From positions 30,483 through 94,482 of the forward strand of contig JAMDAY010000019.1 of NCBI GenBank assembly GCA_023484515.1: DNA of 64,000 nt. The letters are read 5' to 3'. Each line of letters begins with the position of its first letter. The first letter of the stretch is position 1. Both the position numbers and the translations under genes were made by a program. Shown one piece after another: positions 3,691 to 48,770 of this stretch. Source of the DNA: Patescibacteria group bacterium. GTDB lineage: Bacteria; Patescibacteriota; Doudnabacteria; UBA920. The notes beneath the pieces were generated by a model, which saw only the letters and a list, made by a program, of their open reading frames with translations, had not been told where the DNA came from and ran no database searches.

Positions 3691-3758
3691 GTTACCGAAT
3701 GCGCTTTTAAGGCGAAAATTGAAATTTTCAATTTGCGGTTAAAATATCATCCGGTAAC
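3691..3758 (+). repeat. family A repeat element, truncated copy (A4)
   Basis: Shares ccgaatgcgcttttaaggcgaaa with copy A3 and is closed by a gttaccg/cggtaac stem. Confidence 0.55.
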
Positions 3759-5920: not shown

Positions 5921-6050
5921 TGGTGTTTGAATTTTTTATAGCCAAATTTAGGTTGCAACCATTGTCATTTATGGCGTGAGGATCCTTTGTGATTGACCGG
6001 AATCAATTAACCTAATTATTCTAATTAGAATAATTTAAACATCTTTTCCA

Positions 6051-6458: not shown

Positions 6459-6633
6459 TGTTTTATTGTTTAATCTTTATTTTAATTTTCTTCTTTTTGC
6501 CGTTCTTGTTTTGAATTTTTATTTTCATATACCGCTGATATAACGCTGATTATTACGCAGACCAACCGCTGATTAGATAACCAATAAGAATTAATTTTTT
6601 GTCGCTAATTTTTCGCTGGGGGAATCCAACCAA

Positions 6634-7575: not shown

Positions 7576-7650
7576 AAAGGGCGTCTTTCCGGGTATGCAG
7601 GCATTAGATTATTAGATGTTATCCATTACAGTAATACTCATTATTCAGTA

Positions 7651-7749
7651 TGAAGGCCGCCCTCTGGGATAATCTGTCTTAAGATTGATAATAGATGATG
7701 ATCATAGACTGATAATCTAAAGTTCGTTATTCCCAGAGGGCGGCCTTCA
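7651..7749. repeat. family B inverted-repeat element, copy B1 (19-bp perfect GC-rich arms TGAAGGCCGCCCTCTGGGA, AT-rich ~60-nt centre)
   Basis: Perfect terminal inverted repeat. Related copies at 15100, 48771 and 50849. A degenerate partial copy sits at 7578-7650. Confidence 0.75.
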
Positions 7750-7769
7750 AAACTCAGGCCTGTTGTAAT

Positions 7770-8222
7770 TTACACGCCCAGGGACCCTAACTGTTCCGCA
7801 ATGGCATTGCTTTGCTGTTCGGTTTGCTGCTTGTAGGCGGACCATAATTCTTCACTCCAGACTTCTATGCGGTTAAACAGGCCGGCAAAGACAATCTTCT
7901 TATTAATTTTGGCAAACTCCTTTAGGTAAGACGGCAAAATTATGCGCCCCTGCTTGTCCACTTCGCAGTCCATGGCGCCGGCTAGCATCAAGCGGGAAAA
8001 GGCGCGGGTATTGGCAGTGGAAATTGGCAGGCTGGCCAGCTTTTCCGCCAGCTTTTTCCATTCGTCCAAAGTGTATAAAAACAAGGAGTTATCCAATCCC
8101 CGGGTAACTACGACTTTGGCTTCCAATTGCGACCTAAACTTGGCCGGGATGGATATCCTGCCTTTGTCGTCTATGGTGCCTTGGTATTCGCCAATGAACA
8201 TAAAATTTTGAACAACGAACAA
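7770..8222 (-). CDS. mraZ: transcriptional regulator MraZ
   Basis: Duplicated DxxGR motifs (DDKGRISIP, DKQGRIILP). Confidence 0.9.
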   Translation of the reverse strand: MFVVQNFMFIGEYQGTIDDKGRISIPAKFRSQLEAKVVVTRGLDNSLFLYTLDEWKKLAEKLASLPISTANTRAFSRLMLAGAMDCEVDKQGRIILPSYLKEFAKINKKIVFAGLFNRIEVWSEELWSAYKQQTEQQSNAIAEQLGSLGV

Positions 8223-8434
8223 CTCCCCTAAATTTTCCTTTTAAATACGGGGAGAAGATTAATATACTGGATTTTGATTAAATCTCTAAAGCCATTAAAT
8301 TTTGTTTTAACTTGGGCATTCCGGTTTTAAAAACCCCATTTTTAGGAAGACTAGCGTTTTTAAGCTGATTTTGGCTTAAAAATTTGGGGATTTACAAACC
8401 CGGTGGGGAAAATGCCCAAGTTAGATTAAATTGA

Positions 8435-8475
8435 TTATCCACAAACTTTACCACTTATCCCCACTTTTATCCACT
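8435..8475 (+). promoter_or_regulatory. cluster of three co-oriented DnaA-box-like 9-mers (TTATCCACA perfect, TTATCCCCA, TTATCCACT) ~220-260 nt upstream of mraZ; a fourth (cTATCCACA) sits at 8603-8611
   Basis: Exact consensus 9-mer at 8435-8443. Lies in a ~700-bp AT-rich non-coding region. Confidence 0.4.
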
Positions 8476-8692
8476 TTTTACCATTACTCTGGTATTATAT
8501 ACCACTTTAAAACACCGGTCAAAGCAGTTTATATTAACCATTGTTAATATTATTCCTTATAATTAAAGTAAATATTTACTTAAATATTTAAGTAAATAAA
8601 AACTATCCACAAGTTTTCTCTAAAAAGTTTCCTTAACATAAATTTGTGCTTTATTACGACATATTTAAAATAAATAGTCCATTTTACAAGCA

Positions 8693-8722
8693 AAATAAAA
8701 AAACATCCTTGTTTAAGGATGT
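8693..8722 (-). terminator. rho-independent terminator (acatcctt..aaggatgt hairpin plus U-run on the minus strand)
   Basis: Perfect 8-bp stem with an A10 run on the plus side. Sits downstream of the SpoU methyltransferase gene. Confidence 0.55.
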
Positions 8723-8917
8723 TTGCCAGAATAAATAAAACTTCCTGGGATTAAGAGTAACGACAGCCACATTGCAACAGATCCAGCAAAGGAGGACGCC
8801 CCGGACTATCTGCTTAAAGATTGACAGATTGCTATCATTATCCGGTGATTAACAAATTACGGTCATAATCCGGTGATTAAAAGAGCACCATCGTTTGGAT
8901 GCGTCCGGTTAAAACCA

Positions 8918-9436
8918 TTACTGCAATTGCTGGGTTTTAAACCTGCTTCCGGAAAGCCAAAAGGCCGCAATACCGAAAGCCACGGAAACGTTAAGGCTTT
9001 CTTTTTGGCCGGACATGGGGATTTCTATAATCTGGTCGCAGAGCTTTAAAATGGGTTTGGGGATGCCTCTGGTTTCTTCGCCAAGGATTAAAGCCATCGG
9101 GAGTTTCGGTTTAGATTTATTTAATTCGACTGGGCGGCTGAAGCCTGCCCCTACATTGTTTTCCAGCGCTACGGTTCGCATTCCCCTATTTTTCAATTTT
9201 TTGATCAACCGTGAAACGGATTTGCAATATTCCCAAGGCACGAATTTTTCCGCGCCCAAAGCCACTTTGGCTATCTTTTTCCCGTTTAAATACTGGTCCG
9301 GGCGGCCGGTGTAGCCGGTCAAATAAATTTTTGTAACGCCAAATGCGTCCGCAATCCGAAAAATTGACCCCACATTGTAAAGCGAACGGATATTGTGGGC
9401 TATTACAAAAAAATCACGCGACTTTTTTAAGGCCAT
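8918..9436 (-). CDS. SpoU/TrmH-family RNA 2'-O-methyltransferase
   Basis: C-terminal LILGEETRGIP...SLNVSVAFGIA is the SPOUT knot motif. Confidence 0.75.
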   Translation of the reverse strand: MALKKSRDFFVIAHNIRSLYNVGSIFRIADAFGVTKIYLTGYTGRPDQYLNGKKIAKVALGAEKFVPWEYCKSVSRLIKKLKNRGMRTVALENNVGAGFSRPVELNKSKPKLPMALILGEETRGIPKPILKLCDQIIEIPMSGQKESLNVSVAFGIAAFWLSGSRFKTQQLQ

Positions 9437-9932
9437 ATCTTTTCCTGAAAAAGAAAAACCAAATTATATATATTATTGCCAGCAAGCCGTAATTTACAAT
9501 CATGGGAACCGTGTCGGCCCAGGAGACGGCGTAAGGGTTGTGGAAATTGGACAAGGGATAAAAGATAGGAGTGGAAAAATGGACTTTGTGCGTAAACACG
9601 TCCAAAAATATATGCAGCGGCCAGCCCCACATTGGCCAGTACATTTTTCCCCGGCGCAGCGCCAAAACAACCAGCAAAACCGCGGCAAATACCGCCAGGC
9701 TGTGGGTATAATTATAGCCGTAAACCGCAAAACCATAGGTCCAGGAATTTATTCCTTCCAAATGGCGGTGAATAGCGGCTGGATGGAAAATTAAGTAAGC
9801 GGACAGAGGGATAAATACCGACAAATCCGGCAGCAGCCCGAACAATACGGCAACAAACCGCCGCCTTTTTTCCGTACGGTATTTGTCATAAAAAGCCGCG
9901 TTAGTCCACAACGCGTGCGCAAAAACATCCAT
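9414..9932 (-). CDS. membrane-bound metal-dependent hydrolase-like (DUF457/YdjM-like) protein
   Basis: Polytopic, His-rich, with a generally similar pattern. Weak call. Confidence 0.4.
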   Translation of the reverse strand: MDVFAHALWTNAAFYDKYRTEKRRRFVAVLFGLLPDLSVFIPLSAYLIFHPAAIHRHLEGINSWTYGFAVYGYNYTHSLAVFAAVLLVVLALRRGKMYWPMWGWPLHIFLDVFTHKVHFSTPIFYPLSNFHNPYAVSWADTVPMIVNYGLLAIIYIIWFFFFRKRYGLKKVA

Positions 9933-9938
9933 AGTAAA

Positions 9939-10358
9939 TTAAGCGAGCAAATTTAGATTAAAGTCCTGGCTATGCTCCCGCTTTGCCTCCCCGTCCAGCT
10001 TGATCAAAAAAATTTCGCAAGTGGCGCCTACGGCCAGCTTGAACACATGGCCGCTAATGGAAGTAAAGTCGTTCCTGCCGAACACGCCATGCATGTGCAC
10101 TGCCGGTTTTCCGTCCAGCAAAGCCGCATTTCCGTTTAAGGAAACTATTTCAAAATTTTCCATATACGGTTTTTTCCGGTAGTCCTTTAAAAAAGCGTTA
10201 TAGTAACCTATCTCCAGGCTGGAGCACGACCCAATGCCGGAAAATCCGGCAGCCTGGATATTATTCTGCTCCAAAAAGCCGGTCAGGGACGAAACCAGTT
10301 CTTCGTCTTTGTCAAACCGCAGCAAAAACCTTCTATCATCTTGGAGGATAATTTTCAT
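9939..10358 (-). CDS. PPC (DUF296) domain protein; start moved to MKIILQDD
   Basis: ~140-aa PPC-like pattern with AGGA 4-5 nt upstream of the internal ATG. The ORF-track N-terminus looks non-coding. Confidence 0.5.
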   Translation of the reverse strand: MKIILQDDRRFLLRFDKDEELVSSLTGFLEQNNIQAAGFSGIGSCSSLEIGYYNAFLKDYRKKPYMENFEIVSLNGNAALLDGKPAVHMHGVFGRNDFTSISGHVFKLAVGATCEIFLIKLDGEAKREHSQDFNLNLLA

Positions 10359-10527
10359 ATTCCTTGGTTTTATCGCAAACAAAAGCCTCCCTGGCAACAC
10401 TTGTTTAAAGTAGCATCTATTTATATCAAGCTTTGTCTTAGCCAAATGTAAACTGGCGGGCGGGCATTGATGGACCGCTGGTCAGTCAAATATTACAATC
10501 CGACATCCTGCCCAACGGATGACGGGC

Positions 10528-10911
10528 TTACGCCAATTTTACGCTGCGCGCCAATACGTCCTTGACTTTCTGCATAATGTCGTCTACCGACTGGTCGCTC
10601 TTGAGCAAATAGTCGGTCGCCCCGGCTTCCAGGATTTTGCTGATGGTTTCCACGTCGCCCAAATTGGTAAGGACAATTACGGCTATCTTTGCGGTTTCGG
10701 GGTTAGCCTTAAGCTCCCACAGCACGGAAATGCCGTCCAGCTTGGGCATCATAATGTCCAAAAGCAGCAGGTCCGGCGCTATTTCCTTGGCCTTGGCCAC
10801 GGCATCTTCCCCGTCGTAGGCAGGGACCGGCTCATGCCCCGCGGCTTTTAACGCGTCGCAAAGGGAGTTGGAAATTAATTTGTCGTCCTCCGCGACCAAT
10901 ATTTTCGCCAT
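10528..10911 (-). CDS. single-domain response regulator (CheY-like receiver)
   Basis: ILVAEDD acidic pocket, LLLDIMMPKLDG phosphoacceptor region, and conserved T and K. Confidence 0.85.
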   Translation of the reverse strand: MAKILVAEDDKLISNSLCDALKAAGHEPVPAYDGEDAVAKAKEIAPDLLLLDIMMPKLDGISVLWELKANPETAKIAVIVLTNLGDVETISKILEAGATDYLLKSDQSVDDIMQKVKDVLARSVKLA

Positions 10912-10990
10912 ATTATAAAAAGTTAATTTTTAAAATTATGCATTTTCTTGCCACTTTATTATAGCAAATTAGCCAAGAAAATGCATAATT

Positions 10991-12676
10991 TTAAATTGGC
11001 AAGCTAAAATAAAACGTGCTTCCCAGGCTCTCTCCGGCGCTTTCCGCCCAAATCCGGCCGCCATGCGCTTCCACTATCCCCTTGCTGACCACCAGCCCCA
11101 AGCCCGTGCCTTTGCGTGAGCGGTCCGCGCTCTTAAGCTGCTTAAACTTGGAAAACAACTGGCTTAAGTCTTCCCTGGCCACCCCTATTCCCGAATCTTT
11201 CACCGATACTACGGCTTCTTTTTTCTCGGCGTTTGCCGCCAAATTTACTTCCACCTGGCCGCTGTCCGTATATTTTATGGCATTACTGATTAAATTTCCC
11301 AAGACTTGCCCTATCCTGACGCGGTCAAACTTTAACAGATACTTTTCCGGGGACGTCACGTTAAGCGTTAAATGCTTCTGCTCCGCCTGCGGCCTGAAAA
11401 CCTTAGCCTGTTCCTGGATTAATCCCACAAGGTCGTATTCCTGGACGTTCAGTTCAAACTTCCCCGCTTCCAGCTTGGCCACGTCAAGCAAGTCATTTAC
11501 CAGCTCCAGCATGTTGTTGGAAGCGGTTTCAATGGTGACTACCGTATCCTTGACTTTAGCCTGGTCGGCCCCGTTGGCGACGCTTAAATTCTTCAGCAGC
11601 GACTCCGAGGACCAGCGCACCGCGGTAAGCGGCGCCCGCAGTTCGTGGACCATCATGGCCGTAAAGTCCTGCCGCAGCTTGTCCAAAGATTTTTCCGTGG
11701 TAATGTCGTGGAAAACCACGCTGGAACCAAGTTTTTCCCCTTGGCTGTTTTTGACCGGAGAAATAGTCAGTTCCAAGGCCTTGTCCTTTAAAATTACCTC
11801 GTGGACAAAAATGGGCTTGTCCTCGGCCAGCGACTGCTCAATTTTTGTCCTTATGTCAACTTTGCCGGCCAAGCCGTCCACCACGTCAAACATGGTTAAA
11901 GCTTTGTCCTGCTCCAGCCCTAAAATCTTTTTAATGGCCGGATTGGACACTAGCAATTGGTTGTTTGTATTCACCATAACTACGCCGTCGGCCAAAGAAT
12001 AAATAATGGCGGCCAGCTTGCCTTTTTCGCTTTCCAGCACCGCTTGCAATTTGGATACCGCCATTGCCGCTTGGTTGGTAATGGTATATAAAATGGAGGC
12101 CTGCCCTTCCCCGAACCTGCCTTTTTCCACGGACGCCACATTAATTATGCCGACCAGTTTTTCCGAAATGACCACCGGCAGGTTAAAGAATGACTCCACT
12201 TCGGCCTTTAAATTGTCGTCCAAAATATTGCCCGTCACGCTTTCATCCACTACAGAAGGCTTTATTTCCCGGTTTAAAATGGCCGAATAAGACAGCAGCA
12301 TTTTTTCCTTCACCTGTTCTACAAACTCGTGATTGACCGTATTTTCCACATGGCATTTAAAAATAACTTTGCCGCTTTCTTCCAGCACCATATACGAAAC
12401 CGTGTCATACTCCAGCAAGTTCCCCAGGGAACTGGTAATGATGTCCACAATCTTGCCGGTATCCAGGGAGTAGCCGATGCGCTCGTTAATCTCTTTAAGC
12501 ACCTGGGCTTGGTAGACTTTTTGCTGCAATTCCAGGGACTGGCTGGCCTGCCGCCTTAAATATCGGCGTTCCTGCAAAGAAGAATACACGTAGCCGATTA
12601 TTACCACGGCCAGCATTACGAAATCTATAAATAAGAGAATATTGATTATCATTTTTGTTTTTAACTGCGGACTCAA
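10991..12676 (-). CDS. sensor histidine kinase (TM-GAF-PAS-HisKA-HATPase_c)
   Basis: H-box HELRAPLTAV, N-box NLISNAIKYT, G-boxes DSGIGV and GTGLGL. Confidence 0.85.
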   Translation of the reverse strand: MSPQLKTKMIINILLFIDFVMLAVVIIGYVYSSLQERRYLRRQASQSLELQQKVYQAQVLKEINERIGYSLDTGKIVDIITSSLGNLLEYDTVSYMVLEESGKVIFKCHVENTVNHEFVEQVKEKMLLSYSAILNREIKPSVVDESVTGNILDDNLKAEVESFFNLPVVISEKLVGIINVASVEKGRFGEGQASILYTITNQAAMAVSKLQAVLESEKGKLAAIIYSLADGVVMVNTNNQLLVSNPAIKKILGLEQDKALTMFDVVDGLAGKVDIRTKIEQSLAEDKPIFVHEVILKDKALELTISPVKNSQGEKLGSSVVFHDITTEKSLDKLRQDFTAMMVHELRAPLTAVRWSSESLLKNLSVANGADQAKVKDTVVTIETASNNMLELVNDLLDVAKLEAGKFELNVQEYDLVGLIQEQAKVFRPQAEQKHLTLNVTSPEKYLLKFDRVRIGQVLGNLISNAIKYTDSGQVEVNLAANAEKKEAVVSVKDSGIGVAREDLSQLFSKFKQLKSADRSRKGTGLGLVVSKGIVEAHGGRIWAESAGESLGSTFYFSLPI

Positions 12677-12860
12677 CGCGGATCCGCCAACTGGCGGACT
12701 ACGCAGATTTTTGCTGATTTGATAGCAAATAAGAATATCTTTTATTTACCGCGAATCTTAAAGCTTGCCCGAATTCAAATCTATAAGACAAAAATGCCGT
12801 TCTTTATGGTAATAATTTCCGCGAGAAATCCGCGTCGCTATCCGCGTTTATGTCCGCGAT

Positions 12861-13127
12861 TTACAGGCCTTTTACCGCCGGATATTTTTCCAGTAAAGTA
12901 TTTAGGGTCATCTGGGCAATCTGTCCGGAAAGCGTCATATATTCATTGGCCACGCCTTTTAACACCATTTGCGGGTCACCGTCCACATCCATAACCGTGC
13001 CGTCGTCCTGGACCACCAAACCGGGAATTTTCCTGGCCTTGTCCAGGGCAATGTTCGGCCCCAGCACCACCATTTGCTTTTGGATCAAGTCCGTCAGCAT
13101 TTTTTTATATTCTTCATGGTCAGGCAT
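12861..13127 (-). CDS. small hypothetical protein
   Basis: Open frame only; no motif. Confidence 0.3.
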   Translation of the reverse strand: MPDHEEYKKMLTDLIQKQMVVLGPNIALDKARKIPGLVVQDDGTVMDVDGDPQMVLKGVANEYMTLSGQIAQMTLNTLLEKYPAVKGL

Positions 13128-13424
13128 ATTTTTATGTATTTTTAATTCTAAATTTTTGATATTAATAAGATACGATAATTATAACATATAACGGCGGTTG
13201 TTCAAAATTGGGCGCTGCTGGCAGCGAATTCGCCTTTTCGGAAGAGGCCTGTTAATGGCAGGCTGATTATCAACTTTGGGCGACGGTGCCCATCTGGGAC
13301 AATTTTGCTTAAGTTTGGTTGATGATGATTATTATCCGGTAATCTTAAAAACATTTATCCCAGATGGGCACCGTCACTGCCATATACCTTTGCCCTATTT
13401 GGCCAAGGATACCCATCTCACTCC

Positions 13425-14792
13425 CTAATTTTCCCTTAGCCTCCCGAAGCCGATGGAATCCTTAAACACATTAGCAGCCTTAAGCACTGGAGCGCGGCAA
13501 AGGGTAAAGTCCCCGTATTTGGCATTAATTTTGTCCAAGGCCTTAGCCACGCGTTGCTGCCGCTCCACGCCGCCAAACAAACTAAGCTGGCCCGATGCCG
13601 GGCGCAGGCTCCCCACGGTAATGCCGATTAACCTGACCTCCGCGCTTTTTCTGTTTAACTCTTCCCAGATATTCAGCGCTTCTGAAAAAATTTCCTTGCC
13701 TTCGGAAACTGGATAGCCCAGCCTCTTGCTGCGGCCAAAACCCTGACGGCCGTCGTATTCGTAAAAACAAAGCACGCCTCCTTCCAAATTCGCGCGGCGG
13801 AGCCGCGCGGCCACCATCTCGGAGAGCTTGTATAGCACCGGCGCAAAATATTCCGGCTTGCGGAACTCCTTTGGCAAAGTGTACATGTGGCCCATGGATT
13901 TTATATCCTCGTCTTCTTCCACTTCCGGCTTGAACGACCCTTCCAACTGTCCCAAATTGTAAAGATGGTGGCCGGGCAGGCCGAACAAGGCCACCAGCCT
14001 GCTTTTGGGATAATTTTTCAAATCCAGCAAGGTCTTTATTCCCAGCCCGTTCAGCCGTTTTTCCATGCGGCTGCCAATGCCCGGAACGTCGGTAAGCCGC
14101 AACAGATTGTATAGTTGATGTTTTGATAAAAATACGCAGGCGTAACCATTTTTGTCATTTTTATTATTTTTGTCATTTATCACCGCCAGCCCGTCGGGCT
14201 TTTTTAAGTCTGAAGCGATTTTTGCCTGCAGCTTGTTCTCCGCAATGCCTATGGAGCAGGTTAAATAGTCCCCCACTTCGCTGGTTATGCGCCGCTTAAT
14301 TTCTTTTGCGATTTTTACGGCTTCCATGAACGGGTCCGCTTGCGGCATTATTTCTTTACCTAAGATGTAGGTCGGACGCAATAATTTTTGAAATTTTATA
14401 TTTGATATTTGGAATTTATTTGGAAATTGGAAATGGGAAATTGGAATTTTAACATTGCAGCTTGCCGTAACATCCAAGAATACCTCGTCTATGCTGTATC
14501 TTTCCACCTTGTCCGTGTAGTCGCCAACCACCTTAACGAACCGCTGGCTGTAATGCCGGTAGCGGTCAGGGTGAGTTTGGGTCAAAATGATTTTCGGATA
14601 CAGTTTGACCGCTTCCCAAACCGGCGTGCCTGTCTTAATGCCCCATTTTTTGGCCTGCACGCTGGCCGCGATGATAATGCCGCCCAAATGCTCGCACACG
14701 CCCACCGGCTTTCCCCGCCACGCCAAATTCTCCTGCTGCTCAACAGAGGCAAAATAACTATTCATGTCTATGTGCATAATAACGCTTTGCAT
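13425..14792 (-). CDS. dinB: DNA polymerase IV (Y-family, DinB); start moved to MQSVIMHIDMNSYFASVE
   Basis: DMNSYFASVE and SIDEVFLDVT motifs. Contains low-complexity inserts (DKNNKNDKN; FQISNIKFQ). Confidence 0.8.
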   Translation of the reverse strand: MQSVIMHIDMNSYFASVEQQENLAWRGKPVGVCEHLGGIIIAASVQAKKWGIKTGTPVWEAVKLYPKIILTQTHPDRYRHYSQRFVKVVGDYTDKVERYSIDEVFLDVTASCNVKIPISHFQFPNKFQISNIKFQKLLRPTYILGKEIMPQADPFMEAVKIAKEIKRRITSEVGDYLTCSIGIAENKLQAKIASDLKKPDGLAVINDKNNKNDKNGYACVFLSKHQLYNLLRLTDVPGIGSRMEKRLNGLGIKTLLDLKNYPKSRLVALFGLPGHHLYNLGQLEGSFKPEVEEDEDIKSMGHMYTLPKEFRKPEYFAPVLYKLSEMVAARLRRANLEGGVLCFYEYDGRQGFGRSKRLGYPVSEGKEIFSEALNIWEELNRKSAEVRLIGITVGSLRPASGQLSLFGGVERQQRVAKALDKINAKYGDFTLCRAPVLKAANVFKDSIGFGRLREN

Positions 14793-14841
14793 AGCCGCTG
14801 AATTAATGCTGATAGGGACGCTGAATGGACGCTGATGGGGA

Positions 14842-14860
14842 GGGCGGATAGTATCCGCCC
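14842..14860. repeat. family D hairpin GGGCGGATAGTATCCGCCC, copy 1
   Basis: Identical copy at 14918-14936. A copy with longer arms sits inside the transposase gene at 26723-26749. Confidence 0.65.
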
Positions 14861-14917
14861 ATACAAAATGGCAGCGAACTGATATAGGGCGTCTGTGGCG
14901 GATTGGATGGATGTAGG

Positions 14918-14936
14918 GGGCGGATAGTATCCGCCC
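14918..14936. repeat. family D hairpin GGGCGGATAGTATCCGCCC, copy 2
   Basis: See copy 1. Confidence 0.65.
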
Positions 14937-15039
14937 GTACCAAAGATTACCAATGACAATACCAGCCCATTGAGCGGCCCTTTCAGGCGTCATTCCGGAT
15001 ACCCCGACGTTATGTCGGGGTATCCGGAATCTTGTTCTC

Positions 15040-15069
15040 TGAACGCCTCAACCGGCGTTGAGGCGTTCA
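15040..15069. repeat. family C palindrome, copy 2 (perfect 13-bp arms)
   Basis: TGAACGCCTCAACCGGCGTTGAGGCGTTCA. Confidence 0.75.
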
Positions 15070-15099
15070 GCCAACTAACCCAACCGCTCCTACTGGCTA

Positions 15100-15195
15100 T
15101 GAAGGCGCCCTTCCGGGATCAGCCTGCTTAAGTTAGATTAACAATGATCAACATCCAATTATCTAAAGTTAGTTTATCCCGGAAGGGCGCCTTCA
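15100..15195. repeat. family B inverted-repeat element, copy B2 (arms TGAAGGCGCCCTTCCGGGA)
   Basis: 19-bp perfect inverted terminal arms, AT-rich centre with ttagatta..atctaaag. Confidence 0.75.
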
Positions 15196-15393
15196 CAACC
15201 CCATCGCCTCCTTGCGCAATGGGTACCCTTGAGCCCTTTCCGTATATCCGCAGATATCCGTATTCCGTAAAAATTCAGCCTTGCCAAAGCCGAATTTTCT
15301 TGATAAAATAAAGGTATACGAACGTATACCATATTAAAATAATACCCCTTAACAACTATTTCAGTAAAGCCCGGTTATCCACAATAAAAAACG

Positions 15394-15430
15394 CGCCGCA
15401 GTCTAGTAAACCGACTGCGGCGCTTTCCTA
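15394..15430 (-). terminator. terminator hairpin (gcgccgcagtc..gactgcggcgc plus U-run on the minus strand)
   Basis: 11-bp GC stem with an A-run on the plus side, directly after the stop of the 15438-15803 gene. Confidence 0.55.
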
Positions 15431-15437
15431 AAACGAG

Positions 15438-15803
15438 CTACAATGCAGGATCTGCCGAATTCAGCGCTTCTTTAATTCCGGCTTGGAAGGCAGGAATGTT
15501 GAGCTTGGCTATCCGCAGCGTCTCGTATGCCCCTGCTTCCAAGAAACCTTCAATGTCTCCAACGGAGAGGATTGTTCTGGAAATAATGACAACCTTACAG
15601 CGGCCATCTCCCAAGCGGTGCTTGCACTCCCGCACGAATTCCTCCCCCCAACTCTGCCAGACTAACAATAAGTCCGGCGGTTGTTCGCAAAGCTTTTGCA
15701 AAGCGCCGTCTCTCTGTTGGGCATCCCATAAAACAGTGGCGCCCACCTCTTTGAATGCCTTTCTAAACCATAGCCCGTACCAACCGCAAATCCCTACTGT
15801 CAT
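15438..15803 (-). CDS. receiver/flavodoxin-like fold protein lacking the phosphoacceptor Asp (pseudo-receiver), GC-rich
   Basis: PDLLLV-W..KVVIISR..GAYETL parallels receiver topology, but the acidic pocket and Asp are absent. Confidence 0.3.
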   Translation of the reverse strand: MTVGICGWYGLWFRKAFKEVGATVLWDAQQRDGALQKLCEQPPDLLLVWQSWGEEFVRECKHRLGDGRCKVVIISRTILSVGDIEGFLEAGAYETLRIAKLNIPAFQAGIKEALNSADPAL

Positions 15804-15929
15804 TACATTTCTCCTCTTTTTAAGTAAACTATAGTGTGCCCATTCATTGGATTATTGTGCCATTATGAGGAACGATGACATAAAATAATTATGGCCGATA
15901 AATCGGCACACTACATAGCTTATAAATTG

Positions 15930-16322
15930 TTATTTTGATCTTAATACCCTCAGCAGCGCGAATTTTTCCCGGTGGAAGGTGCTAAAACCTTGTTTATTGA
16001 ACAGCTTAACCGCGCTGGTGATGCTTAGGACTTCGCGGATTTTAAGCTTGGCCGCGCGCTCCAGGCATAAGTTGATCAGATGCGTGGCTATCCCCTGCTT
16101 CCGAAAATTCGCGTCCACTACCAAACTGCGAATCTCGGCGATCCGTTTTGAGTAAACTTCCAAGGCGCAGCAGCCGATAATTTTACCTTGCGATGCGGCA
16201 ACAAAAAAGTCCTTGGCCTTTGGCACCATGACTTGCATCAACTGCTGCGGGTGGCTGCGGATTAACTTTTTAATTGCAGGCATGTCAGCTAATCTGGCCT
16301 GCCGAAAAATTATTCCTTGCAT
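15930..16322 (-). CDS. GNAT-family N-acetyltransferase; start moved to MQGIIFRQA
   Basis: VDANFRKQGIATHLI is the acetyl-CoA-binding Q/RxxGxG/A motif. Confidence 0.65.
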   Translation of the reverse strand: MQGIIFRQARLADMPAIKKLIRSHPQQLMQVMVPKAKDFFVAASQGKIIGCCALEVYSKRIAEIRSLVVDANFRKQGIATHLINLCLERAAKLKIREVLSITSAVKLFNKQGFSTFHREKFALLRVLRSK

Positions 16323-16724
16323 ATTCCAAAATTCAGGATTACCCTTAATATTTACAGGCAATTTTGCGCTTCGCATAAAAATTTTATTGCAACCAATCTT
16401 CATCTTTGGACGCCCTATCTTTTAAAAACGTACCACTGGCGCAAAATTGCCTGTAAATATAACAAAGCCCGTCCCTGAAAATAATAAAATTACTTCCAAG
16501 GACGGGCTTGCCGCGGTACCACCTTGATTCCCGGCTGGCTGAAATTTAAGCTTCTTGATCAGGCAGCCGGACGCTCAATATCCATTTATACGGCTGGACT
16601 TCCGTTCCTATTTTAGGACAGCTCCCGGAGCGCGACTTCCGGTAGATGCTTTATAATATGCAATTGTAGGACTAATTGTAGCATAAGCAAGCACCCTGTC
16701 AATTGTGGATAAATATGCAACAAA

Positions 16725-16891
16725 CTAGAGCTGGTCTCATAACCTGCTTTTAAAGCGAAAATTCAGAATTTCGAGCAGATTGGCGCAAATAAATTTTGAC
16801 GTTTAACTGAAGTTAAGCGGAAAAATTTTTTGCGGCAAGATGCCGAAATTGTGAAATTGCAGCCAAAATGAGGTTATGAGACCAGCTCTAG
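16725..16891 (+). repeat. family A repeat element, copy A1 (~125-nt conserved core flanked by 21-bp copy-specific inverted repeats)
   Basis: Core gcttttaaagcgaaa...cagccaaaatg. Flanks ctagagctggtctcataacct / aggttatgagaccagctctag. Confidence 0.75.
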
Positions 16892-16934
16892 CCACCAGCC
16901 AACGCTTGGGGTTTATTTGATTAATCATAATAAT

Positions 16935-16972
16935 TAAAAAACACGGGCTTAATGGTGCCCGTGGTGTTTGGC
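16935..16972 (-). terminator. terminator hairpin (cacgggc..gcccgtg plus U-run on the minus strand) overlapping the stop of the 16949-17416 gene
   Basis: Seen in sequence. Confidence 0.4.
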
Positions 16973-17416
16973 TTGCTCGTGCCGGATGGCAATATGTCTT
17001 TTTTTGTGGGCCAGAAATATCATTACAAGAAAAACAAAATATCCGGTCCAAAACTGGTAATAACTAAATAAGGCAAAACCGGTAAAAAGCGAAGTTATGA
17101 GCAGGTCAAAAAACAAATCCAGCAAAAACCAAAAAATCGCCACAAACATTGATTCCAGGAAATTTATTACCCCCAACCGGCGCACTGCGGCCGCAGTGAT
17201 TACCATTACCGCTATCCAATAATAAAAACTGAACAGGGAATTGTTAAAACCCCAGTATTTGAAAAATAACACTTTCAGCGCAATCAGCAGGAACAACTGC
17301 CAGAACGTATAAATTGCCAATTTTTTAAAAGTCATATTAAACTGCCGCTCCTTGAAGAGTTTCTCCCCGGATAAATTTTCTTTAATATGGATTTGATAAT
17401 AATCATCAATCAACAA
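16949..17416 (-). CDS. polytopic membrane hypothetical protein
   Basis: Several TM helices; His-rich C-terminus. Confidence 0.4.
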   Translation of the reverse strand: MLIDDYYQIHIKENLSGEKLFKERQFNMTFKKLAIYTFWQLFLLIALKVLFFKYWGFNNSLFSFYYWIAVMVITAAAVRRLGVINFLESMFVAIFWFLLDLFFDLLITSLFTGFALFSYYQFWTGYFVFLVMIFLAHKKRHIAIRHEQAKHHGHH

Positions 17417-17471
17417 TCTAAAGATCGCTTGCCCCGGAAGAGACCCTTCAAGGAGATGCGCATTAGGTAAA

Positions 17472-17942
17472 TTATGGCCTGTTTTTTACCGCAGCCTTTG
17501 GCGCGCTTTTCCTTGCCATCTTCCTTTTAATCGGCTGCGGGGAAACCGGCAGCTCGCCTGCCAATTTTTCCAAATTCCCCAAATCTTTTTCCAGTTTCTG
17601 TTTTACGGAGGCGATTTTTTCTTCCAAATTATAATTACCCGAAGCCTTGGCCCGCCAGCGCTGGGCCAGATGATTCAGCATGCCTTTATGCGAACCTGCC
17701 TCGTAGACCAAACCATACCAATAATTTCCCAGCCACACGCCGTACCATGCCCCCAACATTAAGGCTAGAACCAAAGTAACATAATCCAGGGCCGCGAACT
17801 CCATATAGGACAGGCCGAAATTGAAATCCCGGTAATCCACTATTTGCAGCGCCAGGAAAAAAAACGCAATAATCCGGTGCAGCGTTAAAAACAGCAAAAC
17901 CCCAAGCAGGCTGCTTAAAAATATGTATAATGATTTTTTCAT
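17472..17942 (-). CDS. membrane hypothetical protein
   Basis: N-terminal TM helices followed by a coiled-coil C-terminus. Confidence 0.4.
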   Translation of the reverse strand: MKKSLYIFLSSLLGVLLFLTLHRIIAFFFLALQIVDYRDFNFGLSYMEFAALDYVTLVLALMLGAWYGVWLGNYWYGLVYEAGSHKGMLNHLAQRWRAKASGNYNLEEKIASVKQKLEKDLGNLEKLAGELPVSPQPIKRKMARKSAPKAAVKNRP

Positions 17943-18078
17943 GTTTGTTTCCTTAGGCTTTTGGTAATTTTATTATACCACAATTAAAAACGGCTACCAA
18001 GCGCATTACTTCCCTGGCCGCCTGCGCTTTACAGGCCAGGTTATAGGTTACCAGTTATTAAGTTATCTGCCATGCCGC

Positions 18079-19086
18079 CTATCTCGTGCTTAAGATGCTT
18101 TTCTTGTAGCTTTCCAAATTATCCAAAGCCACGCCAGTGCCTTTGGCCACGCAGAGCAAGGGATCTTCGGCTACGAAACACGATACGCCTAAACTTTGCG
18201 AAATATAATGGTCCAAATTCCTAAGCAAAGAAGTGCCGCCCGTCATAACCATGCCTTTGTCAATAATGTCGCTGGCCAGCTCCGGCGGCGTTTCCTGCAG
18301 CACGGTCTTAACAGCCTTGACTATTTCCAGCAATTCGTCGTTAATGGCGTCTACCGCCTCGTTAGTGGAAACGGTCACGGTTTTCGGCAGGCCGGTTATC
18401 ATGTCGCGGCCCTTTACTTCCATGACTTCCTCTTCTCCCAGGCGCATGGCGCTGCCAATGGTAATTTTTATCTCTTCGGCCGTCCGGTCGCCAATGGCAA
18501 TACCGTGCCTTCTCCTCATAAAATCTATTACGGCCTGGTCCAGCTTGTTGCCCGCCACCCGCACCGAAGTAGAATTGACAATGCCCCCCAAGGACAATAC
18601 GGCCACGTCAGTCGTGCCGCCGCCAATATCAATGACCAAATTTCCCGAAGCCGAGGCTATGGGAATTCCCGCGCCAATGGCCGCGGCCACGGTTTCCTTA
18701 ATCACATAAGCCGTTTTGGCGCCGGCGGCCTGCGCGGCGTCCACTACGGCGCGGCGTTCCGTGGAAGTAATGCCGCCGGGGACGGAGATCATCACCTCGG
18801 GCCGGAAAAATCGCACGTTACCCAAAGCTTTGTTTATAAAATAACGCAGCATGGCCTCGGTTACGCGGTAGTCGGCTATTACCCCGTCTTTCATGGGCCG
18901 GCTGGCCACTATGGTTTCCGGGGTGCGGCCCAGCATTTCCTTGGCCTCCTGCCCCACTGCCATTACTTTATTGTCATACAGGGAAATGGCTACCACAGTC
19001 GGTTCGTTTATAATAATTCCCCGCTTGGGCAGGTAAACCAAAGTATTTGCCGTGCCTAAATCTATACCGATCTTGTTTTCAAACAT
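18079..19086 (-). CDS. mreB: rod-shape determining protein MreB (ATG start at 19086; the track start at 19101 is a TTG)
   Basis: GIDLGTANT phosphate-1 motif and actin-fold motifs throughout. Confidence 0.9.
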   Translation of the reverse strand: MFENKIGIDLGTANTLVYLPKRGIIINEPTVVAISLYDNKVMAVGQEAKEMLGRTPETIVASRPMKDGVIADYRVTEAMLRYFINKALGNVRFFRPEVMISVPGGITSTERRAVVDAAQAAGAKTAYVIKETVAAAIGAGIPIASASGNLVIDIGGGTTDVAVLSLGGIVNSTSVRVAGNKLDQAVIDFMRRRHGIAIGDRTAEEIKITIGSAMRLGEEEVMEVKGRDMITGLPKTVTVSTNEAVDAINDELLEIVKAVKTVLQETPPELASDIIDKGMVMTGGTSLLRNLDHYISQSLGVSCFVAEDPLLCVAKGTGVALDNLESYKKSILSTR

Positions 19087-19268
19087 ATAGTCCGTTGCCA
19101 ATAAATTTTCAGCTGATTAATCTTGAATACGCGGATTAACCAAATGCGATAGATTTTACTTTTTAACGCTTATCGTTAAAAATTTATTGCCAACGAACTA
19201 ATTATAACAAAAATTACGGTTTCAAGGAATTTGCCAAACCGGGTTAATTTTAGGTATAATAAATTACT

Positions 19269-20570
19269 ATGAGAAAAAGGACCAGATATTTGCTAATTGC
19301 AGCGGGTTTTACCGTTTTCCTAATACTTACCCCGTTAATTCTAATGTATGTGCGGGGAATCAGTTACGATTTTAGCACCCATAAATTCGTCCAGACCGGA
19401 ATTTTAGCCGTCAGGACCGACCCGAAAAATGTTAAGATAATTTTTAACGGCCAAACAAAGCGCAGCAGTTCCGGCGATATAAAATTCCTGAAACCCGGAG
19501 AATATGAAGTGAAAGTCGAAAAAGACGGATATTCCGCCTGGACCAAACGGCTGGCCGTTTATTCCGGACAAGTAACCTGGGCCAATCCGGTCGGCAATAA
19601 GATTTACCTGTTCGCTAAACAGCCTGCGGTTACGGACATCTCTTCCGGCGTCAAGGACTTCTACCTGCAGGACAACGCTTTGTTGTATTTATCCGGGCAA
19701 AATTTAACGGTTTCCAAGGCGGACAACCCGGGAGAAAACCAAAACTACGGATTGCCAAAACCGGCCGATAAAATTTTAGCCGCTCCGAACAATAAAACTT
19801 TTGCGCTTTATTCCGAAACCGCGACATCCGCAACCTCGTCGGTTATGGTTTTTTCCCTGGACGCGGGAAAAGTGACGGACATAAGTAATTTATTTTCCGC
19901 CGCGCCGGTCCTTAATTTTTCCGGGCAGAACGACTTATACGCCCTGGAAAACGGCGCGCTTTATCGCGTGGATTTAAACAAACCCGCGTTGATTCCTATT
20001 TTAACAGGCATTAAGTCCTTTACGTTTTTAGGCGATACCTTATATTTTATCAAGCAGGACGGGCCAAACCTATCCCTTTTTGCAACGCAGAATCCAGGCC
20101 AAGGCACGGACACTTTGCTGCAAAATCTCCCCAATTTCAGCCAAGGGACAATCAAAGTTAATTTTGAAAAACAAGTATTCCTGCTGTTGGACAACAACCT
20201 TTACGAAGTCGGTTCTGACTTGAAAAAAATTGCCGGCAATGTCACTGACTGGCATTTTAACCCGGCCGAATCCACCATGTCGTTCTTGCACTCCGGAGAA
20301 ATGGATTATTACAACCCTTTCCAGAAGGACATAGATTTCATTACCAGAAGCGGCTCCGGCCTTTCCAATCCCCTGGTAAGCCTGGAATTAAATTACGCGT
20401 TTGTGCTTAAGGACAACCAACTGACCGCCATAGAGCTGGACTCGCGCGACCGGCAAAATGAATATGCGCTTTACAGCGCGGCTAACGGCGGCAAATTCGC
20501 GTTGGACACCGCCGCCCAAAACATTTTCCTGCTGGACAACGGCAACCTGAAAAAAATTAAGATTCGCTAA
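19269..20570 (+). CDS. membrane-anchored PEGA-domain protein with a large extracytoplasmic region
   Basis: N-terminal TM; PEGA-like KPGEYEVKVEKDGYSAW. Confidence 0.55.
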   Translation: MRKRTRYLLIAAGFTVFLILTPLILMYVRGISYDFSTHKFVQTGILAVRTDPKNVKIIFNGQTKRSSSGDIKFLKPGEYEVKVEKDGYSAWTKRLAVYSGQVTWANPVGNKIYLFAKQPAVTDISSGVKDFYLQDNALLYLSGQNLTVSKADNPGENQNYGLPKPADKILAAPNNKTFALYSETATSATSSVMVFSLDAGKVTDISNLFSAAPVLNFSGQNDLYALENGALYRVDLNKPALIPILTGIKSFTFLGDTLYFIKQDGPNLSLFATQNPGQGTDTLLQNLPNFSQGTIKVNFEKQVFLLLDNNLYEVGSDLKKIAGNVTDWHFNPAESTMSFLHSGEMDYYNPFQKDIDFITRSGSGLSNPLVSLELNYAFVLKDNQLTAIELDSRDRQNEYALYSAANGGKFALDTAAQNIFLLDNGNLKKIKIR

Positions 20571-20583
20571 AAATATTTTATGT

Positions 20584-20745
20584 GAGGTGGTCTAAAAACT
20601 CGCTTTGTAGGCGAAATTGCAAAATTTCGAGGCAGTTGGGACAAATAAATTTTGATGTTTAGCCGTAGGCTAAGCGGAGAAATTTTTTGGCCCAAATGGC
20701 CGAAATTTTGCAATTGCAGCCCAAATGGAGTTTTTAGACAGCCTC
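20584..20745 (+). repeat. family A repeat element, copy A2
   Basis: Conserved core with 18-bp copy-specific flanking inverted repeats gaggtggtctaaaaactc / gagtttttagacagcctc. Confidence 0.75.
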
Positions 20746-20807
20746 TGTCTATTAAATACTGCATTACGGTCCGGTAATGCAGTGTTTTAAATCTGTGCCA
20801 TCCTCGG

Positions 20808-21248
20808 TTATAAGCGTATCTGCGGATACAATGCCTCGTCTATGGCCTGGTTCACCAGGCGGTCGGCTTCTTTGTTCTGCTCGCGCGGGACATGTTTGAA
20901 TTCTAAAGATTGGAAATTTCTGGATAATTTAAAGACTTCCGCTGCCAAAATTTTTAAGTTCGGGTCTTTTATTTTATATTTGCCCTGCATTTGCCGCACA
21001 ATTAATTCCGAATCCATCCTAATTTGGAGATTGGAGATTGGAGATTGGGAATTGGAAAGCTTGGCCGCTTCTTTAAGCGCGAGGATTAAGGCCTTATACT
21101 CGGCACAGTTGTTTGTAGCTTCGCCGATGTATTGTTGGTATTGGCCGACAATGTTGTTTTGCCCGTCGCGGATTACCACGCCAATTCCCGCCGGCCCCGG
21201 ATTTCCCCTGGCCCCGCCGTCGGTGTTGATAATAAGTTTGAATGTCAT
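20808..21248 (-). CDS. rnhA: ribonuclease HI
   Basis: INTDGGARGNPGPAG and CAEYKAL active-site regions. An in-frame SNSQSPISNLQI insert is encoded by a (ttggaga)n repeat. Confidence 0.85.
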   Translation of the reverse strand: MTFKLIINTDGGARGNPGPAGIGVVIRDGQNNIVGQYQQYIGEATNNCAEYKALILALKEAAKLSNSQSPISNLQIRMDSELIVRQMQGKYKIKDPNLKILAAEVFKLSRNFQSLEFKHVPREQNKEADRLVNQAIDEALYPQIRL

Positions 21249-22972
21249 AATTTTAATTTTTGTTCATTTTTAACATCAATTATGCGCAGCTTGATATCGC
21301 GCCGCCCGTTCCATCCATCCTCTATTAGTTCCGCTGCCACGTCTATAGTATCGCTAATTTTTAAAGTTTTGGCAAAATAACCCAGGCCGAACCCGATGGC
21401 GGAAATTGTTTTGCCGCCTTTTTGCAACTGCAATTGCAAGTGCTTTTGTTCCGCGCCGACCGCGCGCAAAGACCGCACCTGCAATTCGGAAATTAAAAAC
21501 TTCGGCCTGGAGTTGCCTACGCCAAAGGGCTCAAAATGCGAAAGCAATTCCAAAGTTTCCAGGCGCAAATCGCTTTCCGCCAATTCCGCGTCCAATTCCA
21601 AAGCGCGGTTCAAGTCTTCTTCGGACAAATTCTTTTCCGCGTATTCCAGAATCTTTCGGTAAAATTTTTCAAACTCCGAAACTTTCAGCGTCAGCCCGGC
21701 TGCCTGCCGGTGGCCGCCGAACCGGACAAGATGTTCAGAAGAAAATTTTAACGCTTCCACAATGTTAAATTCTCCCACAGTGCGGGCCGAGCCTACGGCA
21801 GTTTCCCCGTTTTTGGAAAGGACAATGGCCGGGCGGTTAAACTCTTCGGTAATCCTGCCTGCTACCAGGCCGACCACTCCCGGATGCCAATCTTCTTTCA
21901 TTAAGACCAGTATTTTGCGGTCTTCCAACAGTAAAGCCTGTTCGCGAGCCTCGCTTAACATTCTTAAAGTCGTATCCTGGCGGCTTTTGTTTAAAGTTTC
22001 CAAAGCCATGGCACGCTGCTGGGCAGCCACCAAATCCCCTTCCAGCAGCAAATTTAAAGCCGTGGTAGCCAGCTCCAGCCGCCCTGCGGCATTCAGGCGG
22101 GGCGCCAAAATAAAACCCAAGGTATAGGTGTCGGGAAGTTTCTGGTTAAAATTTAGCCCCGCAGTCTGGCATAAAATTTTTAAGCCCGGCCACCTGGTTT
22201 TTGGCAATACCTTTAACCCGAATTTCACCAGTACGCGGTTTTCCCCGAGCAGGGAATGGCAATCCGCCACCGTGCCAATAGCTACTAAATCTAAGAGCCA
22301 TTTTTCCCATCCGCTGATAAATTTTGGTTCTTGATTTTTGGATCTTGGGTCTTGCAAAATTCCCTGCGCCAACTTAAACGCCACGCCCACGCCGGTAATT
22401 TCGCGGCAAGGATAGGTCTCGCCGGGATTTTTTGGGTTGATTAAAGCAAAGGCGCCGGGCGTTGGACCTAAAACTTCGTGGTGGTCGGTAATGATAAAAT
22501 CCATCCCGTTGTTTTTGCAAAACTCCGCGGCTTCCGCGGAATTGGCGCCGCAATCAACAGTAATGACCAGTTTTGTGCCCTGATTGCGGATTTTTGTTAA
22601 AGCGTCCAAATTTACGCCGTATCCTTCGGTAAACCTGCTGGGGATGTAACTTTCCGTTTCCACTCCCAAATAACGGAAAGTTTGCTGCAGCACAGCATTG
22701 GCCGTAACCGCGTCCGCGTCGTAATCGCTGTAAATGCATATTTTTTCGCGGTTTTCAATGGCTTGCCAAATCCTGCCTGCGGCTTTTTTCATGTCTTTGA
22801 ACAAAAAAGGGCTGTGCAAGTCCTGGTATTGCGGCTCCATAAATTTTTTCACCCGGTCCAAGTCCGTAATCCCGCGATTATAGAGCAACTGCACGGTTAA
22901 AGACGAATACCCGTCCAGCTTGCGGAAAATTTCCTCCGGCGCTTCCGGTTTTAATTTCCATTGTTTAGGCAT
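21245..22972 (-). CDS. recJ: single-stranded-DNA-specific exonuclease RecJ
   Basis: DHH motifs (ITDHHE) and the DHHA1 region GGHRQAAG. Confidence 0.85.
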   Translation of the reverse strand: MPKQWKLKPEAPEEIFRKLDGYSSLTVQLLYNRGITDLDRVKKFMEPQYQDLHSPFLFKDMKKAAGRIWQAIENREKICIYSDYDADAVTANAVLQQTFRYLGVETESYIPSRFTEGYGVNLDALTKIRNQGTKLVITVDCGANSAEAAEFCKNNGMDFIITDHHEVLGPTPGAFALINPKNPGETYPCREITGVGVAFKLAQGILQDPRSKNQEPKFISGWEKWLLDLVAIGTVADCHSLLGENRVLVKFGLKVLPKTRWPGLKILCQTAGLNFNQKLPDTYTLGFILAPRLNAAGRLELATTALNLLLEGDLVAAQQRAMALETLNKSRQDTTLRMLSEAREQALLLEDRKILVLMKEDWHPGVVGLVAGRITEEFNRPAIVLSKNGETAVGSARTVGEFNIVEALKFSSEHLVRFGGHRQAAGLTLKVSEFEKFYRKILEYAEKNLSEEDLNRALELDAELAESDLRLETLELLSHFEPFGVGNSRPKFLISELQVRSLRAVGAEQKHLQLQLQKGGKTISAIGFGLGYFAKTLKISDTIDVAAELIEDGWNGRRDIKLRIIDVKNEQKLKL

Positions 22973-23145
22973 AGGCTAATTTTACCAAATTTAGCCAATA
23001 TAAAAAAGTGCAATCTTATTAATTTTAAGATTGTAAGATTGCGACGAATCGCTGCAAATTATGAGGAACACCTGCTGGGATTATTCATCCGATGACCAAC
23101 GAACATTAGTTGCGGGCTGATAGCTTGGCGAGGACATACGCCTCC

Positions 23146-23174
23146 TGAACGCCTCAACCGCGGTTGAGGCGTTC
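23146..23174. repeat. family C palindrome, copy 3
   Basis: TGAACGCCTCAACCGCGGTTGAGGCGTTC. A second palindrome cggctcaacgcgttgagccg lies ~160 bp downstream. Confidence 0.7.
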
Positions 23175-23414
23175 CCGCCATATAGGCCAGGCGGGTCTGT
23201 AGTTGCCTGATTCATCAGGCCCCTTTGCAAAGCTGAGTGAACTAAGCGACTGCTAGCTTAAGGGACAAGCCATGCTGCTGCGCGAACAATCATGGCAGGC
23301 CGCGACCGCTTGTGATCCGTTCGGCTATCTTTTAACGGCTCAACGCGTTGAGCCGTTGGAAACTATGCTGCCTGGCATTGGCTTTTAAACATTCCATGGG
23401 GTCCTGCAAAATAA

Positions 23415-28952: not shown

Positions 28953-28983
28953 AAATTAACAAACTTGACAAAAATGAACAAAA

Positions 28984-38660: not shown

Positions 38661-38784
38661 GCCGATAACTGCAAAATTACGCAGATATTTACGCGTATAA
38701 ATTAAGTTTGCCTATTTTTATTTCAGGATTCGCTTTTGAATACTATAATTTTGTCAATTTTGCTTAATTTTGTCAATTTTGTCA

Positions 38785-48754: not shown

Positions 48755-48770
48755 GGGATTTTTGGCAGTA

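Follow-up and report, generated by a model that had tools for sequence, protein, structure and literature searches.

What are the repeats of about 160 nt that recur, always on the same strand, in a 64-kb stretch of bacterial DNA (hereafter the window): copies of a structured RNA gene or small mobile elements, and, if mobile, what moves them? The window looks like part of a Patescibacteria (CPR) genome, with a GC content of about 47%, genes mainly on the minus strand and a GC skew that is negative throughout. With a size of about 1 Mb and densely packed genes, CPR genomes usually count as poor in mobile DNA. A first reading, made from the sequence alone, had described the repeats, here called family A, and had weighed two explanations: a structured ncRNA family, and a non-autonomous element whose targets would be the centres of existing palindromes, possibly in connection with a Y1 transposase gene in the window. 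We find that the conserved hairpin and the dispersed, non-autonomous character both stand, whereas the palindromic target and the link to the Y1 gene are not supported. Overall, we suggest, with a probability of about 0.7, that the repeats of family A are non-autonomous, hairpin-shaped elements in the intergenic DNA of Patescibacteria (CPR), of the broad class of MITEs and REPINs.

Family A in the window

Four related repeats had been placed in the window, and their positions and full-length relatedness were borne out by a covariance model and by nhmmer, whose HMM, derived from A1-A3, recovered these copies with E-values between 1e-49 and 1e-50 and A4 with 1.7e-5:

16725-16891, plus strand: A1, full length, 167 nt, outer stem CTAGAGCTGGTCTCATAACC / GGTTATGAGACCAGCTCTAG
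20584-20745, plus strand: A2, full length, 162 nt, covariance model score 153.9 bits
40860-41021, plus strand: A3, full length, 162 nt, covariance model score 146.7 bits
3685-3763, plus strand: A4, 79 nt, internally deleted, covariance model score 29.1 bits (E-value 5.7e-4)

A1, A2 and A3 align over their whole length with mutual identities of about 72-78%, and A1 scores 161.7 bits with the covariance model on the plus strand and 70.7 bits on the minus strand. Each full copy is bracketed by an inverted repeat of 18-21 bp with GTCT or GGTCT near its outer end, as first described. The fourth copy had been taken for a truncated one (3691-3758); it is rather an internal deletion: both ends of an A3-type outer stem are retained, and about 85 nt have been lost from the apical part.

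All four copies are intergenic and lie on the plus strand. A2 starts 13 nt past the stop codon of a PEGA-domain gene (19269-20570), and 12 nt separate the end of A4 from the start codon of a DUF3892 gene (3776-4081). The only ORF of at least 80 aa that overlaps any copy (16803-17051, minus strand) runs across A1 and the next real gene and is taken to be spurious; family A encodes nothing and is non-coding. Neither nhmmer nor the covariance model found a fifth copy in the 64 kb, and no additional copy was found in the 6.7 kb to the left of the window (L078) or in the short Logan contigs on its right.

Copies in other genomes

We scanned species-representative genomes and metagenomes for the 18-base motif CCGAAATTNNNNAATTGCAGCC and obtained 38 genome loci and 39 metagenome loci (77 in all; L-numbers denote loci from genomes and metagenomes); the scan gave no motif match in viral contigs. 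True members were sorted from chance matches with nhmmer and the covariance model R1. About 30 true copies were confirmed outside the window, both in metagenomes and in MAGs of Patescibacteria, Parcubacteria and Magasanikbacteria. The bearers include several groundwater and soil CPR bacteria. True members are found on five contigs of the Patescibacteria MAG AMAZON01 (WARV01), in one Magasanikbacteria MAG and two Parcubacteria MAGs, on about 17 metagenome contigs, and in two MAGs of unclear affiliation, one of which (L003) bears the name Acidobacteriaceae as a label only. In megablast comparisons, no match between the window and the pattern loci extends past the element, so that the window's own genome is not among them.

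Most copies were ascertained by the 18-base motif, so that the invariance of the mid-stem in the alignment is partly built in. Five were found without it (L083:12539-12700, L070:560-724, L072:4045-4210, L077:4482-4642 and A4), and the motif-independent copies L083, L070b, L072b and L077b differ in the mid-stem, internal-loop bases included. A1 is closest to the L053 copy (80% identity) and A2 to those of L018 and L067 (81%). As both are nearer to foreign copies than to their window-mates, several subfamilies either are older than the divergence of these genomes or have passed from one to another. At mutual identities of only about 72-78%, the copies in the window's genome are old.

Turnover and genomic placement

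L053 is syntenic with positions 4187-22972 of the window, at 45-87% amino-acid identity. Its single family A copy lies 10 nt upstream of a histidine-kinase gene, and the counterpart spacer of the window (12677-12860) holds none; conversely, L053 has no copy at the site of A1 or of A2. Occupancy thus differs between the two at three sites. A search for orthologous empty sites with the flanks of all copies gave no clean one with alignable flanks.

Some genomes and metagenomes hold recently duplicated copies, which lie in different flanks: L039/L057a and L072a/L077a at 96% identity each, L009/L028 at 95% and L048/L076 at 91%. Copies also lie at the ends of contigs (L025, L039, L049, L057, L060, L064, L070), as expected of repeats, which typically break assemblies. 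One copy, at L072, has rpsD and rpsK of a ribosomal-protein gene cluster as its neighbours; those at L053, L083 and A4 are placed, in either orientation, 10-17 nt before a start codon.

Small hairpins have inserted into the copies of L077a, L018 and L027, and L077 carries a truncated half-copy at about 7858-7975. The hosts of nested hairpins are L077 (7508-7758 and about 7858-7975), L018 (373-579), L027 (5567-5772) and L009 (7324-7510). At L077, the unit TCAAGACGCGAG...CCCGTCTC occurs twice in one copy and once, inverted, in the neighbouring half-copy. These insertions indicate a second, putative family of small mobile palindromes in the genomes concerned.

A separate observation concerns L009, from a distantly related Parcubacteria MAG, where a family A copy directly follows an orthologue of the PEGA-domain gene (gene and copy together, 5933-7510). 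Its position is that of A2 in the window (gene and A2 together, 19269-20745), and it belongs to another subfamily and has the opposite orientation. Chance, a hotspot or an ancient site could each account for the shared position.

A single hairpin with compensatory changes

In the window, the whole of each full copy forms a single long, imperfect hairpin (about 80 bp) with small internal loops. Compared with dinucleotide shuffles, the folds are far more stable than expected (A1, MFE -87.9 kcal/mol, z -12.8; A2, -82.7 kcal/mol, z -12.1; A3, -82.4 kcal/mol, z -11.3). The MFE folds consist of one continuous stem, and the 'core' and the 'flanking inverted repeats' distinguished in the first reading are therefore a single structure: the flanking repeats are real, but the core is itself structured, as part of a hairpin that runs end to end (z -11 to -13). 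Of two internal hairpins proposed earlier, the apical one (ttaact/agttaa versus ttagcc/ggctaa) shows real covariation in the alignment and the consensus structure, whereas the other stretch (cggca/tgccg versus ggcc/ggcc) pairs across the two arms in the MFE folds and is ill-defined in the consensus.

Support from covariation is abundant. RNAalifold on a MAFFT alignment of 20 sequences gave 54 pairs, with compensatory changes in 40 of them. In a model-fitted alignment of 24 sequences, standard pairs fill 94.3% of the cells, compared with 37-51% in slid controls, in which the pairing partners were shifted by 1-3 columns. Both sides have changed in 42 of the 54 pairs of this alignment, and no column shuffle reached the observed values. 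The inverted repeat runs over the entire element, and its outer helix of 17 pairs is 94.8% paired across the 24 copies. Covariation between the 5' and the 3' arm at the N4 inside CGAAATT-N4-AATT speaks for the long hairpin rather than for local ones in each arm.

The length of the element is steady. With boundaries set from terminal strings, 20 of the 25 full copies measured have 158-167 nt (range 158-206 nt), and this holds across subfamilies whose apical sequences are unrelated. The longer copies (184-206 nt; L077a, 251 nt) contain extra small hairpins.

Strand asymmetry and orientation

The top strand, which carries the motif, folds better than its complement in all 29 copies compared, with RNA and with DNA parameters; the mean advantage is 13.4 kcal/mol for the former and 7.3 kcal/mol for the latter. 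Copies that were not ascertained by the pattern are part of this comparison. On the top strand, G.U cells outnumber A.C cells (56 versus 21), an excess that is partly inherited within subfamilies, so that the cells are not independent events. A wobble intermediate can be seen in L038, where TTTTG is paired with CGAAA, and the completed compensation in L083, where TTTTG is paired with CAAAA.

The single orientation noted at first holds for the four copies of the window but not for the family, which is mixed across loci both with respect to GC skew and with respect to neighbouring genes. Judged by the sign of the GC skew and by the neighbours at element-bearing loci, we found no replication-strand or gene-strand bias in orientation. 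With orientation mixed, a strand-biased mutation process cannot explain the fold asymmetry; the asymmetry points rather to one of the single strands, as ssDNA or as RNA, as what selection acts on or what is inherited.

In a stronger version, family A would be a strand-specific ssDNA hairpin replicator, similar to a 'giant REPIN' and upheld in the streamlined genomes of CPR bacteria, with a top strand copied by an HUH/Y1 enzyme, by another ssDNA-processing enzyme or through an RNA intermediate, and with subfamilies that persist vertically across CPR classes, unlike decaying MITEs. We regard this version as possible, though doubtful.

The RAYT-like gene and its palindromes

The Y1 gene of the window resembles the transposases associated with REP sequences:

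26507-27010, minus strand: RAYT-like gene, Pfam Y1_Tnp, 26.3 bits

Its ORF scores 54.3 bits against the NCBIfam model REP_Tyr_transpos (REP-associated tyrosine transposase), under the cutoff of 80, and has 808 homologues at an E-value of at most 1e-10, those with a named source spanning several phyla. A phmmer search of the six-frame translation with IS608 TnpA and E. coli RAYT queries (approximate sequences) gave no match. The gene contains TGTAGGGGCGGATATTATCCGCCCCTACA, and AGGGGCAGGTTTGGAAACCTGCCCCT comes after it. A GTAG-tagged palindrome (26719-26753) lies in frame within the ORF, just past the HUH motif (HGIIVIGD-VGADIIRPY).

The same arrangement recurs at the four homologous loci that we examined (L081, L082, L083 and L085), each of which has a short GC-rich palindrome at the same position of the ORF, just past the HUH motif, and at least one more beside the gene. 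Palindromes lie on both sides of the gene except at L085, with one upstream and none in the 200 nt downstream. Their sequences differ between genomes (GTAGTGCAGGCCACCGGCCTGC in five copies at L083, GTAGGGGCGGCCAGCGGCCGCCC at L085). GTAG tags are present on most of them, but the REP-like palindrome that overlaps the stop codon of the window's gene has TTAG, and two of nine at L083 and L081 are untagged. A RAYT gene with short palindromes of its own is the classical REP-RAYT arrangement. It seems noteworthy that a RAYT should carry such a palindrome within its own reading frame, and at a constant position. In the window, the palindrome GGGCGGATAGTATCCGCCC, of the same family as the one in the RAYT ORF (repeat family D13), has copies at 14834-14868 and 14910-14944, upstream of a Pol IV (IMS family) gene (13425-14993); GATGGGGA precedes the first and GTAG the second.

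None of the RAYT-associated palindromes, either in the window or at the four homologous loci, resembles family A, and the proposed link between the family and the Y1 gene finds no support here. A REPIN-like mechanism would have this enzyme (RAYT-like Y1, HUH; 26507-27010), or another HUH enzyme, move family A as ssDNA with the top-strand hairpin as substrate. The gene is present in the window, a compensated whole-length hairpin is a hallmark of REPINs, and the asymmetry of 29 out of 29 copies, found with DNA parameters too, is predicted by a one-strand mechanism and not by dsDNA cut-and-paste. In addition, GTAG stands just 5' of the 5'-arm palindrome CGAAATT-N4-AATTTCG in some copies (A2, L038, L043, L067, L083, L004, L039 and L050), and at L083, one of the four contigs with the closest RAYT homologues, a family A copy lies 2 kb from the homologue. 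However, the tag is confined to a minority of copies (others have TTAG, TAAG, GAAG or other bases in its place), and the co-occurrence at L083 is confounded by phylogenetic relatedness. The RAYT genes are accompanied by unrelated short palindromes at all five loci, no family A copy flanks that of the window, tblastn found no RAYT homologue in the 77 pattern-scan loci, all the element-bearing ones included, and orientation is unbiased with respect to GC skew. We consider the mechanism unlikely, and equally unlikely that the window's RAYT is the mobiliser of family A.

Structured RNA as a possible alternative

Selection at the RNA level could also keep the hairpin, if family A were a structured ncRNA family composed of sRNA genes or of cis-acting UTR elements. 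The covariation is very strong, the length is constant across subfamilies, and the top strand both folds better in every copy and favours G.U over A.C. Placement offers some further agreement: A2 is located between a stop codon and a hairpin, and A3 is followed by a hairpin (41042-41058) that the scan calls terminator-like on the minus strand only and that, by eye, has T-runs on both sides.

Other observations speak against an RNA gene. Rfam 15 gave no match in the window at gathering thresholds, and at permissive E-values only hairpins of the miRNA-precursor type (at most 31.7 bits versus cutoffs of 50-130). Copies are non-syntenic between the window and the related L053. A1 lies between a terminator-like site (16963-16942) and a promoter-like site (16702-16675, 11/12 matches), both on the minus strand, and the promoter scan found no plus-strand promoter-like site upstream of A1 or A2. 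The lack of synteny, the setting of A1 and the lack of an Rfam match together weaken the reading as an ncRNA gene. Moreover, the flanks of different copies are unrelated and share no conserved promoter, and promoter and terminator scans revealed no outward promoter within copies. With mixed orientation, it is the weaker-folding strand that would be co-transcribed in about half of the copies. Internal-loop bases vary in copies not ascertained by the pattern, and copies that are 95-96% identical in unrelated flanks, together with those at contig ends, indicate proliferation. We find a structured RNA family improbable as the explanation of family A.

Element ends and insertion sites

Family A copies end in one of two ways, and TA, TTA or TTAA abuts both ends:

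Termini of family A: TAGAGCNNGTCTNAAAAC or GGGWCTGTTGCCGAAT
Ends with flanks: T(T)A-GAGCC...GGCTC-T(T)A or TTAA(N)-GGGWC...GWCCC-TTAA(N)

The direct repeats at the flanks of the copies exceed those of cross-paired controls in length (mean 2.45 against 1.88; permutation P-value = 0.006). Examples are TTAAC on each flank of A3, TTAAT/TTAAT at L009 and TTA/TTA at L046, L072a and L070b. The direct repeats vary between 1 and 5 bp, and the self-complementary TA may be the closing pair of the stem.

The ends are the most variable part of the family, and they change in a compensated way. On one of the two explanations weighed in the first reading, the copy-specific outer stems would be pre-existing, locus-specific palindromes (terminators, for instance), into the centre of which a core of about 125 nt had inserted. 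The outer stems of the three full window copies do differ, and IS1397, which reportedly inserts into the loops of REP sequences, would be an example of an element that enters palindromes. Nevertheless, the same types of outer stem recur in other genomes and contexts. The A3 stem GGGTCTGTTGCCGAATGCGC matches GGGACTGTTGCCGAATACGC of L009; the outer stems of A3, L009 and L028 agree at 18 of 20 positions, and L031 has the A3 type as well. The A2 type is found in L018 and L027, the A1 type in L072b, and a type with AGARCCTATTT at six loci. Homology and covariation continue unbroken from the core to the last base pair, and all copies fit the covariance model from one end to the other (positions 1-163). 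Recurrence across genomes makes the outer stems the element's own ends, which fall into subfamilies, and contradicts a palindromic target; we rate such a target as very improbable.

Chance similarity or an assembly artefact, given nhmmer E-values down to 1e-50 within the window and independent copies in many NCBI, JGI and ENA assemblies, is ruled out for practical purposes.

Other repeats and features of the window

The window holds further repeats. A perfect or near-perfect palindrome of 31 nt, CTGAACGCCTCAACCGGCGTTGAGGCGTTCA (family D9), has four copies; a Logan contig over the left end of the window stops at about 1552, some 60 nt before the first of them. An intergenic repeat of about 50-100 nt (families D2, D4, D5 and D7) contains a conserved segment ...ATCTAAAG...CCCGGAAGGGCGCCTTCA, and one of its copies lies about 35 nt upstream of A3. 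A motif with a period of 9-10 nt, TTTTGTCAATTTTGTTCA... (D1, D6 and D16), occupies spacers beside glycolytic and ribosomal-protein genes. A repeat of 39 nt, CTTTCCGTATATCCG...ATCCGTATTCCGTAAAAAT (D11), has three copies that are 82-87% identical. The positions are:

1609-1639, 15039-15069, 23145-23175, 48726-48756: D9 palindrome
7695-7750, 13215-13377, 15090-15196, 17396-17451, 40775-40826, 48759-48865, 50840-50945: D2/D4/D5/D7 repeat
28933-29029, 38740-38798, 53041-53099, 58743-58858, 59204-59286: TTTTGTCAATTTTGTTCA runs
15236-15274, 50949-50987, 54394-54432: D11 repeat

ARAGORN found no tRNA gene in the 64 kb, despite the presence of the S10/spc ribosomal-protein gene cluster and of dnaX.

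Relation to known elements

REPINs are doublets of REP sequences that form hairpins and are associated with RAYT transposases in Pseudomonas and Enterobacteria (PMC3116915, PMC3337134). They consist of two inverted REP units, each of which is a short palindrome with a GTAG or CGTC tag (PMC3733652). Like family A, REPINs are non-coding, intergenic and multi-copy, form a long compensated hairpin, have subfamilies that persist across related genomes, and share their genome with a RAYT-like gene. At about 160 nt, family A exceeds REPINs in length, and it is AT-rich. Conservation is highest in its mid-stem and not in terminal REP units, the GTAG tag occurs in some copies only, and the RAYT gene, here and at the four homologous loci, is flanked by other short palindromes.

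Bacterial MITEs include the Correia (NEMIS) elements of Neisseria and elements derived from IS630 and IS5. Family A resembles MITEs in several respects. It is small (100-250 bp), multi-copy and free of ORFs, it has terminal inverted repeats, it lies at T/A-rich sites with TA-type flanks, near genes and within operons, it is present or absent between related genomes, and it has internally deleted and nested derivatives. It departs from them in the lack of a known parent IS, in an inverted repeat that extends over the whole element, in ends that are least conserved and change in a compensated way, in strands of unequal fold stability, and in a candidate target-site duplication whose length varies among the copies compared.

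PATEs, which derive from IS200/IS605 elements, have distinct left and right hairpins, no terminal inverted repeat, a fixed 5' target of four or five nucleotides and an orientation bias linked to the lagging strand. A parallel with family A in the dependence on a single-stranded hairpin and in strand specificity is plausible; in contrast to PATEs, family A is one symmetric hairpin without orientation bias. General background on IS200/IS605-derived elements is available (PMC6006769).

Some observations count against family A as a mobile repeat. A search of about 0.6 Mb of related DNA for an autonomous parent IS turned up copies or fragments only, and no matching ends, solo or widely spaced, beside a transposase gene. 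The flanks of the copies led to no clean empty site that would define the junctions; the direct repeats have 1-5 bp, and their TA is possibly the last base pair of the stem. The ends vary most, the opposite of classical DDE-type MITEs, and the strand asymmetry and covariation would also fit a function at the RNA level.

We nonetheless favour a non-autonomous, hairpin-shaped intergenic repeat. Copying would take place in trans, through an enzyme that is encoded elsewhere and is probably not the window's RAYT, and family A would insert into T/A-rich intergenic DNA; a master copy would propagate only if the pairing of its top strand is kept. Inserted copies may be passively co-transcribed with their neighbours in either orientation, and the resulting RNA hairpin of about 80 bp could alter the processing or stability of mRNAs. 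Incidental effects of co-transcribed copies at the RNA level seem likely.

Implications

MITEs and REPINs are well-known kinds of hairpin repeat, and family A introduces no new principle. Literature searches for MITEs, REPINs and RAYTs in CPR, Patescibacteria and Parcubacteria gave no description of such an element; family A appears to be undescribed, although its kind is already known. Its copies break metagenome assemblies, and its subfamilies are possible markers of strains or lineages. Where copies lie within about 20 nt of start codons or in a ribosomal-protein gene cluster, an RNA hairpin of 80 bp could affect expression. A repeat of conserved length, with unequal strands and with compensated changes from end to end, in several CPR lineages leads one to ask what lets elements of this kind survive in minimal genomes and by which enzyme they are copied.
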